Below, in pieces: positions 7,449 through 43,142 of a DNA stretch of 64,000 bases (position 1 is the stretch's first letter; every line of letters begins with the position of its first letter). Source of the stretch: Carcharhinus amblyrhynchos (Eukaryota); assembly GCA_965287045.1 (NCBI GenBank), contig OZ336871.1, positions 53,816,001 to 53,880,000 of the forward strand, written 5' to 3'. Position numbers and translations under genes: made by a program. The notes under the pieces are model-generated. The model made no database searches, was not told the origin of the DNA, and saw only the letters and a program-made list of their open reading frames with translations.

Positions 7449-7681
7449 TCAAAGCAATGGATTCGTGGTGTAATATTGAAGGCGGTCCCTGTTTAACTTC
7501 TTTTCCTTCATCCTCCTGTTCTGAAACCAAATTTTCACTTGCCGGTCGGTTAAGTTGAGCATCCGGGAAAGTTGCAGCCGCTTCTCTTTGTTGATATAAA
7601 CACTGAAAAAAAATTCCCTCTCCAGCTCCCTGATCTGGTACTTGGTGTAGGGGCACCTTTTTTTGCGTGTACGCTGGCCAC
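7449..7681 (-). CDS. HOXA11: HoxA11 exon 2 (homeodomain)
   Basis: Minus strand after acceptor ttacag| reads (S)[76 protein letters not shown]-stop (TGA 7451-7449). This is a PG11 homeodomain; the phase-1 junction matches exon 1. Confidence 0.97.
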
Positions 7682-8699
7682 CTGTAACAGGTAAACAGTA
7701 CGTTAAACTTTGATCATTGGAAATGTAGAGGAGACATCATCTTTCCATGCTTTGCTGTGCACATATTCACAGGGCTTGGGGGTTTGAAGCGGGGCGGGGG
7801 GGGGGGGGGTCTCCATAGCTCCTGATTTTCAGACAATACTTTTTTTTTCACCCAGCAGTGTCCAAAGTACCGAATCGTTCTCTAAAGCATACCACCCCTT
7901 TTCTTTCATATTTTGACTGGTCCTTGGGACAAAAGATGGCTGCCTCGATCTGTATTAGTTCTAATGGTTGTGGAATTGTTAAGTTGAAGCTAGCTCCATT
8001 CCAATGATATACTTCAAAGTTACAAATGAACTTCCCGCATCCAGGGATTAGCTACAATTTTTATTTTGAAAAGGGAAACGCTTTTCTTTAAGGAGGGGCG
8101 TCCCACTATCTGTGCGTTAAAAACAGCAAATGGATGAAAAGCAGGAAGTTTTTTTAAAAGTTTTATTTTATCTGCTGAGTTCAAACTAAAAGGGACTGGG
8201 GAATGGGAAACTTGAGCTGTCTTTTTTTTCAAAAGACGTTTGGTAGCAACAATCCGTTCCTTAGGGGAGGGGGCTTAATTCTTTAGTCATTCTGCGCTGT
8301 AAAACTCAACATGGAGCTGCCTTCAGAGGCAATATTGCAGCGTTAGAACTGCGTCGATCAAACGTCGAGCTATAAAATGCGATTATTAAATAAAATACGG
8401 TCACCCGGCCCTGAAATAAGTTTTTATGATGGAAAGCTCTATGCTAGAGGTATTGCAGTATTTATATAGCTGTTAAAAATGTCATTTTGCCACATTATGT
8501 TTTAAAGCGGTTACTCATGGAACTGAATACAACCTATAAATAGAGTTTTTGTGTCAACACGTGTGTTTTATAGAATTGTTGAGCTGTATTAATACACGCA
8601 AAGATCGCAAGCCGCCAACTGCCAATTTTGCTAACTTTGCACCCACTCATATAAATGATCGGATTTTTAACCCCAATCTCACTTTTTGAGGTGCCGGTG

Positions 8700-8870
8700 G
8701 AAGTATTTTAATGCAGCGATTGGCTGGAGTTATTTCACGGCCAATTTCAGAGCTGAACACGTGATCCTGTCATTTATATAAAAAAAGTTTTGTTGGGAAA
8801 TCTACAGGCCATCCATAAACCCTCTTATATGCTTATAAAACAGCACATAAAATTTTTAACAGCAGCGCGC
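8700..8870 (+). promoter_or_regulatory. HoxA11 intronic regulatory module (CCAAT, E-box, TATA, dense TTTAT/ATAAA Hox13/Cdx-type sites)
   Basis: ATTGG 8719, CCAAT 8741-8745, CACGTG 8758-8763, TATATAAAA 8775-8783, followed by CCATAAA, CTTATAAAA and CATAAAA next to the exon 1 donor. Confidence 0.5.
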
Positions 8871-8916
8871 GAGATCGCAAAACTTTCTCTCACAACTGGG
8901 CACTGACTCTACCTAC

Positions 8917-9526
8917 TGGAGTTGCTGCCTTTCTCCTCATTGTTGCCGGAAGAAGACTCCGGGCTGCTGCTCCCGGGGCTCGTCTCTTTCTCCACGGACA
9001 CCCTGGAAGTCTCCGAACTTGAAGTTGCCGCAGACGGCACTTTATTTGGACTCTTCTCTCCGCAATACTCCGACTGCTGATTCTCGCTGGAACCGTAGGC
9101 TGTCTCGAAGAACTGGTCAAATCCTTGCGGCAGGACCCCGTTCCTCCCCACCGGGTTGTAGAAGCTGGAGGACGCGTTGGAGCTGGGATGGTAAACGCTG
9201 GCGCTATTTTTCATTAACATCTCGCCCATGGTGCTGGCAGGCAGGCACTCTCTGTGCATCAGCTCCTCTGCGGAATAGCAGTGGGGCAGATTACCCCTGT
9301 GATGCCACTTATTGGAGGGATCGATGGCATAGTCTCTGAAGGTAACTTCTCGCACAGGTTGAACCTGGGGGATATTGGACGAGTAAGAGTATGTCATGGG
9401 GCGAGAAGCCGGCGTTTGAGGTAAAAAAGAAGGCAGGCTGGAGAAATCCGGACCGGAGACATAATAGGTACAGCTAGGCAAATAAAGATTAGAGCCACAA
9501 GAAACCCGCTCATCAAAATCCATCAT
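8917..9526 (-). CDS. HOXA11: HoxA11 exon 1
   Basis: ORF 8909-9571 contains [39 protein letters not shown]...[15 protein letters not shown]...[19 protein letters not shown], the typical HoxA11 N-terminus. Donor A|GTAGGT at 8917/8916. Spliced CDS is 843 nt (280 aa). Confidence 0.96.
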
Positions 9527-9579
9527 CGCTTGCTTGGGGTCCCCTAGCGCAAGAATAGCTTGCATTCGCACAGCTAAAC

Positions 9580-9760
9580 ATGGTCCTTAGATGCTGCTGC
9601 CTCTTTGAAGCTGATCCGCGGAGTAAAAATTTGGAAACGTAAGCTGACGTGGAAATGTATCTCCATACATCGCAGGGACAAGCTAGTCATGTGACCAGAT
9701 GCCTGGAGAAATTGACATGCATCACTTTGGATTCCCCCCCTCGCACCAGCAGCGCAAAGC
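9580..9760 (-). promoter_or_regulatory. HoxA11 proximal promoter / 5' leader region
   Basis: Immediately upstream of the ATG; TGACGTGG at 9645-9652 and near-palindromic E-box GTCATGTGAC at 9686-9695; CpG-rich. Confidence 0.55.
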
Positions 9761-29200: not shown

Positions 29201-29369
29201 ATGTTTACACAGTCCCAGCTTCAAAGCCCAATACACGTCATTTCTTCATTTTAGAACGATTTGTAAACATTTGTCAGAAATAGTTACATGTAAAGATAAT
29301 TTAATTATAAGGGTCTGGTTGTAGCTCTGCTAAGTTATTTATTCCAGTTTGCTAGCGGCGAATGGGCCT

Positions 29370-29408
29370 TTATTGTTGTTGATACTGATCTTGAAACCAT
29401 TTTCGTCC
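29370..29408 (-). pseudogene. HOXA14: HoxA14 pseudogene, exon 3 remnant (helix 3)
   Basis: ACG AAA A TGG TTT CAA GAT CAG TAT CAA CAA CAA TAA = (TK-)WFQDQYQQQ*, matching Hox14-type VKIWFQNQRQKEKK. It lies ~70 nt after the exon 2 donor; the acceptor AG is lost. Confidence 0.7.
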
Positions 29409-29477
29409 ATCCAGTGAAAATGCTTATATCTGCGCCCGTCAGGAACTTCTTTTCATTTTGAATATTCTAGCCTTTAC

Positions 29478-29674
29478 CTGTTGTTCTGCTAGCCCCAGTT
29501 TTGCAGAAGTTTTTTTTTATTTTGCTGTTATCGTATTCAAGCGTCAACAAGCAAGTGTTCTCAAAAGCTCTTGAAAGGGTTGTGCAATTTGGAGTTTTCA
29601 ATGATGGGTTCTTTTCTTCCCCTGTGTGTACTGTGCTCGTGGGTGGGCAGACCAGGGTGAACGAGCACTCGGGG
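29478..29674 (-). pseudogene. HOXA14: HoxA14 pseudogene, exon 2 remnant (homeobox up to codon 44)
   Basis: Bounded by acceptor ttacag| (29675) and donor CAG|GTAAAG (29478/29477). Reads TQGKKRTHH*KLQIAQ [frameshift] LSRAFENTCLLTLE [indels] TSAKLGLAEQQ|, matching the Hox14-type pattern I recall (approximately QRKKRxPYSKxQIxELExAFExNRFLTPExRxxISxKLGLTERQ|) with the intron after homeodomain residue 44. Confidence 0.85.
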
Positions 29675-32171
29675 CTGTAAATTAACAATATCGAATTATT
29701 AGATTCGACTATTTTCATTATTATGTTTATTATTTATTATATATGGCCTTACAATATATGAAAAGTGTCCATTGCTTTAACGAAATGTATATAAAGTTCT
29801 ATAGTGATACTACTTAGATTATTGAAGCCCAAAGACATTAAGTCTGCACAGTGAATACAAATAAAAAATTCCAGTACGCATATGAATGCGCAGATGCCAG
29901 TTTTGCGGTAACTTGAATTTACGATCTCAAACCATGAACATTCTGTAAACAACTGCCACCTAAAACTCTATATATGGCTTTAAATTCAAGTAAGACAAGT
30001 ATCTCTTCAAGCCTGCAGCAATAAACACAGGCAAGAAGATGAAATCAAAATTATACGAAGTCACATATACGTTCCTTTCTAAGCGGCAAATATCATCGTT
30101 CATGGCTCGTGGGCATAAACTATTATTAAACCTGAAGATAACCAACGCCAGCCAGAAAACAAGAAAAAACATACTATTGCACTGTAATATAACTGGTGCC
30201 CATATTATCGAAAAACAACCTTTCTTACATTTGCCAAGTTAAATGTCAAATCTAAACACAAAGTTAGTTTATTGTAACGCATTGTGCAGGCTTGTAATTG
30301 CTAAACTTAATTTCACAGTCCCTAAAAAGACACATATCATTTATTTGTTCTCCTTTAATGGCACATGATTTGCACTGACATCATTTTGTGTTACACTCTT
30401 GTAACTATGTTACATATCCCTGCTATGTGCCAAATGATATGTAATATATTTAATACTAGACAATGACTACATACTCAACAAAGATTGTTTTCTGTAGGTG
30501 TTATTTTACACAGTACGATGATAAGTTATGTGTAAGAATTCCAAATCAAGGTATTTTGTGCTTTTTACTGCTTTTTATTTGGAATTTTCATCCACGATAT
30601 TTGATGTATTGCTGTTGCCATACGTGCGTGCGAAAACGATTAGCTAAAATGTATTAGAATAAATACAGGTGCATATTTTCTCAACATCTTTCTATTTTGT
30701 ATAGTAAAATATACTTTAATCAAACTGTACGTTCCACGTTAAAAATCATTAATCTTGGGGGAGGATATTTTGTATACGTTCAATGAATGGGCGATCTATA
30801 TATGAATATTATTCCTTTCAAATCAATTCACCGGGTGCTTAGGAACAATTTACACGATGACACGGAATATTTAAACACACTATCTCTTCTGTGACTGGCT
30901 TTGGTTTTCTGTCTAAACATTTCGAAACAAACATCTGCACATTTTCGTTCACAACTGCCTCTGAAAGTCTTCAATGACTTTTATAAGTTTCAGTGATAAA
31001 GGTAGCATTAAAAAAAGGATGAAGGCTTTATTTTCTCTTTTTCCAGCCTGCGAGTAAGATGTTACTCGCACAGTAACAAACATTTCATCACCCACCCAGT
31101 GAATTGTTTAAAAATTATGTCATACATTAAGTCGTAAAGTGATAATCTGTTAATATTGTTTTGGGTACTTGAGTGGGGGATAGTATCAACATAAAGTTTT
31201 ACTGTCGCTTTTAGATTGAAACGTTTCTTTTTGTCAATTTATGATGCCTAAATACAACACTCTGTCAACATTATACCACACACGATCTTCATCGTGAACT
31301 GGGTTCTCCGTACGTTATGGAGGTAGACTGAAGTGTAATGTTCAGCGGATATTTGACATGAAGTCCTCCATACCTAAAACTAATTCAGGGTATACACGAT
31401 AACTTGCATCAGTCAGTACAGGACTAGAGAAAAATCAACGCATGGTATATTTGAAATTATGCAGAGGAGCAATGAGGCTACGAGAAAGGGCATATTTATT
31501 GCATGGTTTTTCTTGGTCGTTTTACGGATATGGAATGCTTTTCGAATCATTTAGTAACAATAATCTAGCCTCTATATATTTCAGCAAAATATCACCAGTC
31601 ATTTTGTTTAGTAATATAGTTCATTATCTCTGTCGAATCTTTCTAGCTCGATCTTAGCCTGATTACCAATGTGAGAAATTGATCAGAAATTAATCCCAGT
31701 CACTCGGTCTGCCAGCAAACACCACCCTCCCCCCTCCCTCCCCCGCCCCCGCCCCGCCACCCAACCAGACCTAAGGAAGGGGGTTATTAATTACTTCTTC
31801 GTTCCGAGTGAAGAATGAGTAATGGTAACGGGTTATCCTCAGGTCTGGTTCATTAGTATCAGTCTTAGTTTGACCAGTGAGATTAGAGGGTCGTGAGAAC
31901 CTATAGCTTCCTGATAAGCACGGCGACCCCTGCATGTTCAGCCCAGGCTCGGCTGGACTCGGCTAAGGAGCTTTCCTGAACTATTCAGATGCTGCGAGTA
32001 GCAGCGACTCCACAAGAACGAGACTGAAGAAAACTCGATCATAATCGGGGGCGGGGGGCCGGTGGTGGGGTTGGCGGGGGGATCACTGCTAAACAGTAAA
32101 CGCGCATGGGAACGGATAATGTCTGATACTATTCAGAAGGAGCAAAGTAATGTACATATATTTCACATTAC

Positions 32172-32785
32172 CAAGCAAGATCATTTCTGTATTTGCCATT
32201 GTAGTGGCGCAGTCTTTCCACTAGATGTCTGCAGAGTTACTTGAAGATGTTCAAGAATCCTTCCTGAATTTAGACTTCTGTCTTCAGAGATTGCAGTCAC
32301 GATATGTGGTACTACATTTGGATGTGTCTGGGTAAAGAACGGCTATGTACAGAACTTAAGTTTTTGCCATGCTATCAGAAGCAACTATTGCTGTCACTGG
32401 TTAAATATCCTGCAGCCATGCAAATGTATCATTATATTACAATGTATATGTTTAAATAGGAAGGTAAAACCGTCGTCAGGGTTAATCTTTAATCTGTTCG
32501 AGTCAAGGACACTAAGGCGGCAACCACATTGACATTGCCAGATGCAAAGTGTGATCCGAGATCAGACGTGTTGGCTTGCTTGGAAGTCCAGACGCACGTT
32601 TACCTTTGAACAGAATGGCGAAGTTTACATGACAAGGGTAAAACCGCCTGTGTTGGAGCTGAGTGTATGAAATATGGCTGGACAAATGGATCTGCTCCAG
32701 CTAATTTAACACAGACATGGGAGGTTTGAGGTTTATTGGTCGCTACAATGGGTAATACACCTAGAATTTCTTCAAAGACCTACAT
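32172..32785 (-). pseudogene. Probable decayed HoxA14 exon 1
   Basis: ATG at 32785 is followed immediately by TAG, then long coding-like stretches broken by stops and frameshifts. LPRHIQM/VVPHI resembles PG13-type [13 protein letters not shown]. Ends in donor-like G|GTAATG (32172/32171); size ~610 nt, similar to HoxA13 exon 1. Confidence 0.45.
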
Positions 32786-36480: not shown

Positions 36481-36606
36481 ATTTGACAGATACATTTTAA
36501 ATTTGAAACAACAGTATTTTTAAGATAAATACATGTAAACTCTGACTGATATCTGTGGCAGTGCGATGCCTTGAATCATTCTGCGCAACGCCGTGAATTA
36601 CATTGA

Positions 36607-36752
36607 TGTCATAGAATCCTACAGTGCAGAAAGAGGCCATTCGGCCCATCAAGTCTGCACTGACCACAATCCCACCCAGGTTCGACCTCATAACCCCAAG
36701 CTTTCACTCTACCTAGACTCCCTGACACTAAGGGGCAATTTAGCATGGCCAT
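36607..36752 (-). mobile_element. HE1-like SINE / CR1-tail fragment
   Basis: CATAGAATCCTACAGTGCAGAAAGAGGCCATTCGGCCCATC...ACTAAGGGGCAATTTAGCATGGCC; same tail as the full-length copy at 50966-51287. Confidence 0.7.
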
Positions 36753-37524
36753 TCCATCTTTGGTCAGGAGAGTTTTCTTTCTCTAGTCCATTAATTGTCT
36801 GGACACCTTTAAACTGCAGCTTCACAGAGTTTAGTACACTCAGTTGTCAGATCGTCACCTAACCACTGAAGTCTACTGAGTTTCTGTTTACCCCACTGCC
36901 GCATCCATACAAAGTGGCAGATTTTGAAAAACTAGCACTCAGTTATTCCGGACTGTAGAGTTAATTGACATCTTATATCACAAAGTACATAACGATAAAA
37001 TATTAAGTGATAATAGAATTGATACTCATTCACCAGAAACGAAGAATTAGATATCTGTGACTCAGTCAATCTTATACATTGGTTGACTATCAAAAGATCA
37101 AATAGCTAATATCCAGCAAATCAAATGCATAATACCAGTTGGAAAGCATTAGGCTCGGATAGTTTCAATACAGCCAATTTGGACCGGACACAAGAAGAAC
37201 TTTAGAAATCTTAAACTCGTCCAATCATACAAAAATAAGCAGAATCAAACAAAGGAGTAGTAAACGCCTTGGTAAACTGAGAAGTAAACTATGGAGTTTA
37301 AGGCTCTCTGACAACCTACTATACATAAGTGACAAAGGTTAGTTAGTGCAAAACACCTCCCAGAAGAGAGGGGGGACAGCAAAGCAAATTAGGAGAAATA
37401 GGTGACTAGTCATTATGGATATATAAGTAACACACGTTACAGATTTTAGTAAATTTGGTTTGGTTGAAGGTTTGGTTTGGTTGAAGGGAGAGAGGGGTGA
37501 TGATGGAGTTGTAGGATCGGACTC

Positions 37525-40211: not shown

Positions 40212-41280
40212 TCAAACATAATAAGAACATAAGAAATAGGAGCAGGAGTAGGCCATCTAGCCCCTCAACACTGCCCTGCCATTCAATAAGATCATGGCTG
40301 ATCTGATAGTGGTTCAGTTCCACTTACCCGCCTGCTCCCCATAACCCTTAATTCCCTTATTGATCAGAAATCTATCTATCTGTGACTTAAACACATTTAA
40401 CAAGGTAGCCTCCACTGCTTTAATGGGCAGAGAATTCCAAAGATTCACTAGGCTCTGGGAGAAGAAGTTCCTCCTCAACTCTGTTCTAAATTGACTCCCC
40501 CTTATTTTGAGGCTGTGCCCTCTAGTTCTTGTTTCCATTCTAAGTGGAAATAATCTCTCTGCTTCTACCCTATCTAGCCCCTTCTTTATCTTATATGTCT
40601 CTTTCAGATCTCCCCTCAGCCTTCTAAACTCCAACGAATACTAGCCCAGTCTACTCAATCTCTCCTCATAAGCTAACCCCCTCATCTTCATAATCATTCT
40701 GGTGAACCTTCTCTGCACTCCCTCCAAAGCCAATATATCCTTTCTCAAATAAGGGGACCAAAATTGCACACTGTACTCTAGTTGCAGCCTCACCAGTGCC
40801 TTGTACAATTGCAGCAAGACTTCCCTGCTTTTATACTCCATCTCTCTCGCGATAAAGGCCAACATTCCATTTGCCTTCTTGATCACCTGCTGTACTTGCA
40901 AACTGAGTTTTTGTGATTCATGCACAAGGACCCTTCTGCACAGTAGCATGTTGTAATTTTTCACAATTTAAATAATAGTCCATTTTACTATTATTCCTTC
41001 CAAAGTGGATAACCTCACACTTGCCAACGTTATACTTCATCTGCCAGATCCTTGTCCACTCACTTAGCCTATCCAAATCCCTTTGCAGACTTTCTGCATC
41101 CTCCACGCAATTTGCTTTCCCACTCATCTTTGTGTCATTTGCAAACTTTGTTACCTTACACTCAGTCCCCTCCTCCAGATCATCAATGTATATGGTAAAC
41201 AGTTGAGGCCCCAGCACTGATCCCTGCGGCACGCCACTAGTCACCAACTGCCAACTGCACCCATTTATTCCAACTCTCTG
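40212..41280 (-). mobile_element. 5'-truncated CR1 (HER1-like) LINE, RT C-terminal part and 3' tail
   Basis: ORFs VTSGVPQGSVLGPQLFTIYIDDL...KFANDTK, LQLYKALVRLQLEYSVQFWSPY...LEGVQRRFTRMI and RRLRGDLKETYKI...TRGHSLK...NLWNSLP, broken by frameshifts; ends in a (TTCTTATG)n-like tail. Confidence 0.92.
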
Positions 41281-43142
41281 TTTTTAATATTAAATTACAT
41301 TGCATCGTTCAGTTAGCTTGTGATCTAATACTTTTATATATGAAACCCAGTGAAGGCCACACTAAGCTAATTATGGTCAGTAGGATTATTTGAAGCTTTG
41401 AGATGAGCCAGGCATACAATTTGAACTAGGTTGCCTGCAATGATTTGTAGCATTGATTGGCTATATTGGGTCAACACTACAGAAATAGACTATTCATCCC
41501 ACTGGTCCAAGTCAATAATCATGCTCCACATGGCTTTCCACCCTTCTTCATCTAACCATTGCTTTACTACTTTATTCTTTACTCCATTATGTGTTTATCT
41601 AGACTTCCCTTTAAATGCACCATAGTATTTGCCTCAATGATTTCTTCCTTCATTCTTCCTCTTTAGGTCAAGAATTTATCCTAAACTCCCCACGGAAACA
41701 CATGGGCCATATAGTTGGTAAATTTAAGTTGGTATACCTTGGCAGCTTCCTTACGTTGTGCAATTTGTTCCCACAAACTGTTGCCATTTAATGGAGTTTT
41801 GAACCTGGTTGCCGCTGTCTGCCTGTGTTGCAGTATTGTATTTTGGACAAACTGCCCTGGAATGACAAACATCAGATGTTAAGATAACACGTTGCTCCAT
41901 CAATAAGTTAACAACTAGGTTTCCTGATGTTATTTTACTTGTGTAGTTATTGGGATACTGTCAGACATGTTTATTCCTCAAATGATATTTGGAAAAGTGC
42001 AAGTGTGTATTGAAAATTATTGCATGCTTTTTATAAGTTTATGCAAGTTTTGCTCCCATAATGAATCTGCTATTTTTATGTTGTTTCATCTCTTTAATTT
42101 CCCCATCATCTTTTTTCAGCAGTCCCTCTAATGGCTGCTAACCTTCCATTGAGTTCACAGCAGCAGGCTTAAACTTCTTAAAATTCAACTAGCCCCTAAA
42201 TTTTGGTGGTCAGTCCTCAACATCCAGGCAGATGTAAATCTCACAGCACACTGCTCCTACTGGGTCCAGACACACACTCAGAAATCTGTCCTCATACATA
42301 CATAGATATGGAAGGTATGCTGATGAGGAAAATCATAGAACACATTACAACCCCAATTTTGCCAGTCTCAACACAATGCAAGAAGTATGACTGGGAAAAA
42401 TCAGGCACACAGTTTTCGATGAGATTCTCACTGTGTCTGATCTTCTGATGGGTGACTATAGGGAGCTAGGAGGAGGTACACCAGTGAAGTGTATGGATCT
42501 CACTTCAGTGTCTAAAATATTTAATTTGGATCTTACATTAAATTATATGAGTTTAGGTGAAGCTCCACAAACAGAATTATTCCCCAAACTGCGCAAAGAG
42601 AGTGCTGAAAAGGTAAAGCATGTTCAGTACTTCTTCTTAATGATATTTTTTGTAATTTAGGTAACTTTTCAAGCTCCAGAACTTTTTTGACTGGAGTGTC
42701 TTTTCTTTCCTGCAGTTAGTTTGTTGTCCTTGCTGCTACTTTTTTGCAGACTTTCAATTTTCTGTTTTATGCTTTCCAAATTTCTATATTAATACAAATA
42801 ATACCTAAATAGTTAGGGAGGATGGGATGGACTATATCAATGGCAATATTTTGCACAACTGAACCAGAGAACTTAGGGAGAAGCATTGTCTTTATATTCC
42901 TGCCATAAGTCCAGGACCCTTATTTATTAAGCATATAATTTGTATGTGGACACTTTGGAAAGACCTGACTTTATTTGTGTCTGAGCAATGCCATTTTCTG
43001 CAGCTTGACATACAGATGACTCCATGGGCTAGGATTGTTCTTCCAGTTGCTGTAATGGGCACTGTAGAATTAGGTTTATTGGCCATCAAATGAGACATCT
43101 GCTATTTAAGTCAGTTTGCAATGCGTTCCTCTGTCAATGGGT

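Follow-up and report, generated by a model that had tools for sequence, protein, structure and literature searches.

Hox14 genes consist of three exons and read WFQNQR in the homeodomain, and group-14 pseudogenes occur in cartilaginous fishes, as stated in PMC3509897, which cites Powers and Amemiya 2004 and Ravi 2009. In the elephant shark (Callorhinchus milii), HoxA14 and HoxB14 are described as pseudogenes and HoxD14 as intact (PMC3707753). A preliminary description of the locus studied here had likewise noted that HoxA14 pseudogenes are reported from cartilaginous fishes. An intron splits the Hox14 homeobox at what is termed a 'conserved position' (PMC3707753, PMC3509897). For skate and horn shark, PMC2746220 argues that a HoxA14 gene is absent, the word pseudogene being unused in the sections available. 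HoxA14 is known from lungfishes (PMC3038165, PMC7875771), and Hoxa14 is reported as intact in caecilians and as pseudo-exons in turtles and crocodilians (PMC11600591). Bowfin hoxd14 is a pseudogene with many stops that is transcribed and spliced, and gar hoxd14 a pseudogene for which the same account gives no evidence of transcription (PMC8423624). Expression of Hox14 genes has been described around the hindgut and cloaca (PMC5054437, PMC3534614), and the excerpts available from PMC1845163, PMC5054439 and PMC9495127 hold nothing further on the question.

Here we analyse the 5΄ end of the HoxA cluster of Carcharhinus amblyrhynchos and describe a relic that is very probably a dead HoxA14 gene. 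A HoxA14 pseudogene of the horn shark was reportedly described by Powers and Amemiya in 2004. Our literature search found no HoxA14 relic, or transcription of one, in a ground shark; Powers and Amemiya 2004, Kuraku 2008, Ravi 2009 and Feiner 2011 lay outside its scope and may describe a shark relic. The locus resembles the group-14 pseudogenes of the elephant shark and other cartilaginous fishes, as far as these are described in the sources cited above, in being a dead gene at the 5΄ end of HoxA in a group that kept HoxD14, and differs from the elephant shark pseudogenes in belonging to a galeomorph shark. With the intact HoxA14 genes of coelacanth, lungfishes (P0122, P0123 and P0125) and caecilians it shares the order of its parts and its place upstream of HoxA13, and it is the coelacanth and lungfish proteins that match it best across exon 1 and the homeodomain flanks; those genes, however, have open frames, whereas the relic carries stops and frame lesions and has changed about half of the invariant residues. 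Similarly, the turtle and crocodilian pseudo-Hoxa14 keeps recognisable exons with stops and frameshifts, although it represents an independent, later amniote loss, and no shark is named among the 25 species annotated in that study (PMC11600591). Bowfin hoxd14 is likewise a dead Hox14 with many stops, but by its published account (PMC8423624) it retains WFQNQR and the split junction and its RNA has been demonstrated, whereas the relic reads WFQDQY and has lost one acceptor.

Results

The locus and its intact neighbours

The window (the whole stretch of DNA analysed, 64,000 nt) represents the 5΄ end of the HoxA cluster, lying on the minus strand, and its only intact homeoboxes are those of HoxA11 and HoxA13 (Table 1). 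The HoxA13 protein matches at 95% the representative of a 23-member chondrichthyan HoxA13 cluster. Compared with the 15 members of that cluster that were listed, it equals the Mustelus protein except at two exon-join artefact positions, which differ from all 15, and the Carcharodon/Cetorhinus HoxA13 is, among these 15, one residue further away than the Mustelus member. This resemblance points to a galeomorph and probably to a ground shark. The relic lies 6.2–9.1 kb upstream of the HoxA13 start on the same strand, in agreement with the preliminary description, which had placed it about 6 kb beyond HoxA13.

Table 1. Features of the putative HoxA14 pseudogene and of its neighbours (positions within the window)
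Feature	Position	Strand	Basis and remarks
Exon 1 remnant of HoxA14	about 31771..32243	-	tblastn, profile alignment, 31-codon reading
Intron 1, 2,096 nt, phase 1	29675..31770	-	donor AG/GTCTGG at 31,770, acceptor TTACAG/ at 29,676-29,675
Exon 2 remnant, 197 nt (the proteins imply 182)	29478..29674	-	16 residues before the homeodomain plus homeodomain residues 1-44
Spacer, 69 nt, after Gln44	29409..29477	-	GT at the donor end; AG lacking where the acceptor should lie
Exon 3 remnant, helix 3 and C-terminal tail; 3΄ end undefined	29334..29408	-	Trp48 at 29,399
HoxA13, intact neighbour, fixes cluster identity	21811..23137	-	Pfam HoxA13_N and Homeodomain
HoxA11, intact neighbour	7450..9586 (approximate ORF limits)	-	homeobox

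A profile search of the whole 64 kb detected no Evx1, the gene expected on the far side of a HoxA14, and no further homeobox was found between 32,300 and 64,000, so that Evx1 either is separated from the relic by over 31 kb or escaped detection. Rfam recognised no family in the window. The CpG observed/expected ratio is 0.76 up to about 36.5–37.5 kb and 0.25 beyond; the fall is sharp (window positions 36,500–37,500), lies upstream of exon 1 of the relic by about 5 kb, and probably marks the edge of an unmethylated Hox domain with the dead gene still inside. Just outside the CpG-rich domain there is a fragment of a LINE reverse transcriptase (40,918–41,283, minus strand; Pfam RVT_1, E 1.4e-9). 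A CTCF-like consensus had two matches in the window against 0.98 expected, none of them close to the relic.

Hox14 identity of the decayed homeobox

Reference proteins were fetched with a small profile made from pieces of the window, which returned 17 of 141 candidates; a first profile search for Hox14 had yielded 19 candidates, none of which scored. Six of the retrieved proteins are Hox14 by their sequence (WFQNQR). The source name says so for three of the six clusters, namely horn shark HoxD14 (P0124), Neoceratodus HoxA14 (P0125) and lamprey Hox14 (the cluster of P0129), and coelacanth P0122, Protopterus P0123 and hagfish P0130, which bear automatic names of other homeobox genes, are Hox14 as judged from sequence and tree position. 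Misleading automatic names are in fact carried by P0122, P0123, P0124, P0129, P0130 and P0145 (Hox-D12-like, Hox-B9a-like, Hox-B13a-like, Hox-B9-like, nob-1-like, MOX-2-like), so that searches by name miss the family.

The tblastn comparison advised in the preliminary description, run against the 64-kb window, met its target at 29,675–29,313 with both lungfish HoxA14 proteins (E=3e-6 and 1.3e-5), coelacanth HoxA14 (E=0.012) and horn shark HoxD14 (E=0.019). In frameshift-aware alignments over 29,674–29,334, the six Hox14 homeodomains scored 59–82 (z 8.6–18), with maxima of 34–40 among 100 dinucleotide shuffles each, whereas eight non-Hox14 homeodomains scored 25–42 (z -0.2 to 4.5; A13 38–39, A11 32, A10 25, others 31–42). 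The only windows to outscore the relic are HoxA13 and HoxA11 and, for the Hox14 queries, this concerns 1 of 620 control windows, overlapping HoxA11. Because the retrieval query had contained part of the relic, residues -15 to 29 were retested separately: the six Hox14 proteins scored 40–78, a level reached by none of 614 control windows, and two A13 proteins 27–30, equalled by 23 and 83 of the 614.

At 17 scorable positions Hox14 and A13 never share a residue, and here the relic is of Hox14 type 12 times, of A13 type once and of neither four times. It keeps Trp48, Phe49, Gln50, Gln52 and Gln54, and Gln at position 52, in place of Arg, is a mark of Hox14 (WFQNQR versus WFQNRR). The homeodomain tree that had been proposed as a check (17 rows, which include no HoxB13, HoxC13 or HoxD13, and 60 columns) puts the relic inside Hox14 with support of 99/96, although its end branch is long (1.68) and a placement with HoxA13 is not rejected by an AU test (p 0.135). 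Compared with the window, a HoxA14 profile found HoxA13, HoxA11 and then, all on the same strand and in collinear order, exon 2 (E 1.8e-6), exon 1 (0.01) and, weakly, exon 3 (3.4), plus one extra match at chance level (E 4.3).

Which Hox14 gene is it? The homeodomain is equally near D14 and coelacanth A14 (27 of 53 residues each), and the 5΄ flank of the homeodomain shares 4, 6 and 7 of 16 residues with the three A14 proteins and 3 of 16 with D14. Outside the homeodomain the parts are nearer to A14 than to D14, one D14 protein being compared and the far N-terminal extension being comparable with D14 only.

General searches were less sensitive. Pfam detected no homeodomain in either single-frame reading (a below-threshold match to MqsR was dismissed as noise), and phmmer with the read-through sequence matched 0 proteins among 1.84 billion. 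Searches with HoxA13 only left the relic at chance level (E 1.2 in tblastn, 0.52 with a profile), although the A13 profile still ranks it first among the matches outside genes.

Exon 2, the spacer and exon 3

Read on the minus strand, the relic shows every motif that the preliminary description had quoted, at its place: KKR...KLQIAQ, LSRAF...LTLE in another frame, SAKLGL...QQ up to 29,478 and WFQDQ from 29,399. The nonsense ORF of 83 aa mentioned there also exists (88 aa from stop to stop, with Met at 6), as do the one stop and two frame disruptions attributed to exon 2, which are a TGA (29,600–29,598), an insertion of 2 nt (29,579–29,578) and a net gain of 13 nt (25 nt in place of an expected 12, 29,535–29,511). 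These gains add up to +15 and leave both ends of exon 2 in one frame with stops between; we attach no meaning to this, as it has one chance in three. The extent given to the feature, 29,370–29,674, left out exon 1 and about the last 35 nt of alignable exon 3.

The intron of the Hox14 homeobox sits after homeodomain residue 44. In the relic, exon 2 begins after ttacag and is followed by gtaaag, and the GT comes immediately after Gln44; the same six bases are also the codons of Val45 and Lys46. No AG is found 9 nt before Trp48, and the nearest ones are 23 and 30 nt before it. The homeobox is probably still split at the position claimed, by a 69-nt break that is most likely the Hox14 homeobox intron, although the donor can also be read as Val-Lys and no AG closes the break; the acceptor and the gtaaag donor of exon 2, which had been called intact, are present, and the acceptor of exon 3 is not.

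Exon 3 contains two stops, TAA (29,372–29,370) and TAG (29,354–29,352), and its helix reads WFQDQY instead of WFQNQR. From position 48 to position 69, 21 of 22 codons are at most one base from a codon for a HoxA14 residue, and a pair-HMM gives +19 to +21 bits, which none of 1,270 window pieces attained. The remnants of exons 1, 2 and 3 are collinear on one strand.

Exon 1 and the first intron

Coelacanth A14 finds exon 1 by tblastn (31,947–31,813, E=0.001) and, taken alone, scores 67 on the exon 1 core, the highest value among 254 one-kb pieces; for the two lungfish proteins the scores there are 46 and 40, which other parts of the window exceed, and the D14, lamprey, hagfish and A13 proteins have no match to this core. 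A profile of three A14 proteins and D14 aligns over 32,243–31,813 with a score of 75.7, the best of 384 window pieces and as high as in none of 100 shuffles. An ATG at 32,184 aligns with Met1 of lungfish and coelacanth HoxA14, and the codons from there on can be aligned without a gap to residues 1–25 of Neoceratodus A14, 9 of them identical; the distance from the ATG to the best donor is 414 nt, where about 406 are expected. The frame that the ATG opens stops after 31 codons, and the alignment in the middle of the exon is loose. An earlier candidate for exon 1 at 32,750–32,170, chosen for its A13-like words, was rejected, its A13 scores being at shuffle level.

Upstream of this ATG, the stretch 32,243–32,199 (minus strand) is similar to the extension that horn shark HoxD14 has at its N-terminus (9 of 15 residues identical), a likeness that by itself does not reach significance (5 of 100 shuffles score at least as well). 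The ancestral A14 start may have been further upstream, the annotated lobe-fin starts being a second Met.

Among nine GT candidates for the donor, the one at 31,770 scores highest when the exons are joined and aligned with three HoxA14 proteins, by a margin of only 2 points over the next. Within intron 1, contigs of 80–90% identity pile up in four runs at about 30,136–30,760 and 31,150–31,400; these are old dispersed repeats, which do not recur elsewhere in the window. A G-rich stretch (minus strand, 31,720–31,772) just after the exon 1 donor and a C-rich one (32,047–32,081) inside exon 1 are places where the relatives' assemblies break.

Decay and comparison with relatives

All three exons bear lesions that interrupt the protein (the early stop in exon 1, the stop and two frame lesions in exon 2 and the two stops in exon 3), which, read from the sequence, shows that the relic makes no Hox protein. 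Four jawed-vertebrate Hox14 proteins have 52 invariant columns in common; the relic is identical at 26 of these, one base off at 22 and two bases off at 4, so 48 of 52 lie within one base, compared with a mean of 19 and a maximum of 33 for random codons. The divergence is estimated at 0.36 substitutions per site (0.25–0.52, kappa 4; 0.33–0.39 depending on kappa), which carries no calendar date because the available shark rate (PMC10587355) is given per generation and not per year.

Contigs of three related organisms (A, B and C), from four sequencing runs, were compared with the relic and differ at 20 of 3,028 (0.7%), 45 of 2,190 (2.1%) and 56 of 3,101 positions (1.8%), summed over the main pieces. 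The exon 2 TGA reads AGA in all four runs, hence in all three organisms, and is private to this genome; it is therefore recent and not the founding lesion. In relatives A and B exon 2 aligns without gaps, which means that they have both frame lesions too and that these are older; relative C has 17 gap letters, whose places were not listed. At 29,434, a CpG change in relative C makes a helix-3-like stretch of the spacer end in Arg-Val-Gln as in HoxD14, though normal decay of a CpG would explain it equally well. Divergence shows no difference between exon-rich and intron pieces (Fisher p 0.23, 0.60 and 0.72), and the relic thus appears to decay without detectable constraint, in a comparison that is weak, with few differences (40 of 354 listed) and an intron 1 baseline that may itself be constrained.

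Of the four splice dinucleotides, three remain. With the amount of decay estimated above, chance alone would preserve the two of exon 2 with a probability of 0.26 (0.16–0.38), and three of four with 0.33 (0.17–0.51); retention of splice sites is therefore not evidence of selection. The suggestion that their survival hints at a spliced non-coding RNA is supported neither by this estimate, nor by the exon 3 acceptor, which lacks its AG, nor by the exons, which vary between relatives as much as intron 1.

Discussion

Our results argue for a unitary pseudogene of HoxA14, the fourteenth HoxA gene left in place with the orientation of HoxA13, 6–9 kb upstream of it, and reduced to three exon remnants, and we give this neutral-relic account a probability of about 80%. 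The identity of the gene, taken on its own, we regard as close to certain, supported as it is by the Hox14-specific scores, the diagnostic residues (12 against 1), the tree, the collinear exon 1 and the place upstream of HoxA13; on this central point the preliminary description was right. We propose that the relic is the HoxA ohnologue of HoxD14, as its position, structure and sequence suggest: after the two vertebrate genome duplications, the cartilaginous fishes would have lost HoxA14 while retaining HoxD14. What was left of the gene would then have decayed by point changes and small indels, with lesions still accruing, and the remaining splice dinucleotides would be leftovers. That it can still be read may be due to the slow change of shark genomes and to its location in a CpG-rich, presumably unmethylated Hox domain.

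Other origins fit the data less well. One could argue, from the AU test and from a homeodomain as near to D14 as to coelacanth A14, that HoxA13 was duplicated locally and the copy decayed, or that a copy of HoxD14 moved here; nevertheless, the diagnostic residues point to Hox14, an A13 exon 1 query has no match at the relic, the flanks and exon 1 favour A14 over D14, the 2.1-kb intron excludes a retrocopy, and place and orientation are those expected for A14, which makes either origin very improbable. Chance resemblance in A-rich intergenic DNA might be suspected from the empty single-frame library searches and from A13-based E values of about 0.5–1, but is refuted by three exons in collinear order, for each of which window pieces and shuffles served as controls, and we consider its probability negligible. 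The nature of the spacer leaves somewhat more room for argument. Instead of being (only) the Hox14 intron, it could be an old tandem duplicate of the helix-3 tail, the intron having been lost or deleted and the 'donor' being Val45-Lys46. The spacer does start with GTA AAG, it has no acceptor AG, at 69 nt it is shorter than shark Hox introns, which measure 202–473 nt (PMC2746220, Table 1), and ten of its codons (29,460–29,430) fit Hox14 residues 54–63 with 22.5 bits, against 24.6 for exon 3, a fit equalled once among 1,840 window pieces and once among 500 shuffles. This helix-3-like stretch was, however, noticed after the fact; the global fit of the spacer is only -1.6 to +1.2 bits, far from that of exon 3, 14–29 of 1,270 controls do as well once the first six bases are fixed, and a direct likeness between spacer and exon 3 is absent (180 of 1,270 controls as high). 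Moreover, the homeobox intron is present in all vertebrate Hox14 genes, according to PMC3707753 and PMC3509897. A duplicate is thus unlikely, though it keeps some weight, and a plain intron is what we very much favour.

Could the dead gene still have a role? With the same origin, the locus could be transcribed and spliced as a non-coding RNA, from exon 1 to exon 2 and perhaps to a cryptic acceptor, or act as a regulatory element at the 5΄ edge of HoxA. Such a role would accord with the three splice dinucleotides still present, unchanged in the relatives among the differences listed (40 of 354), with the position of the relic within the CpG-rich domain, with AATAAA at 29,374 and 29,343, and with the precedent of bowfin hoxd14, described as dead yet transcribed and spliced (PMC8423624). 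These points lose force on inspection: survival of three of four dinucleotides is expected by chance with a probability of 0.17–0.51, the exon 3 acceptor lacks its AG, the exon 1 donor AG/GTCTGG departs at +3 and +4 from the consensus, the exon pieces are no better conserved than the intron pieces, relatives at no more than 2% divergence are too close to judge six bases, and AATAAA is common in the A+T-rich DNA found here (7 sites in 1.9 kb). We consider a persisting role quite unlikely. In its boldest form, equally doubtful, the relic would keep its promoter region and first intron and yield a spliced exon 1–exon 2 non-coding RNA in the old Hox14 territory, that is, the cloaca, the hindgut or the posterior fin, which might, from its place at the 5΄ border of the cluster, act on HoxA13 in cis. 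If this were true, then together with bowfin hoxd14 the conversion of a dead Hox14 into a regulatory RNA would have happened more than once, in two different clusters and two lineages.

On the neutral account that we prefer, the relic is a well-preserved example of a type known in cartilaginous fishes and also in turtles and crocodilians, and the accepted picture of Hox14 evolution is unchanged. What it adds is an exon-by-exon map, a recent extra stop, and a D14-like N-terminal extension lacking in the annotated lobe-fin A14 proteins. The map permits a direct test for an RNA like that of bowfin, and it permits asking whether sharks, rays and chimaeras have a founding lesion in common, which would mean one loss, or whether there were several losses, a question left open in the account given in PMC3509897. 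The finding confirms that HoxA14 was once present in the shark lineage.
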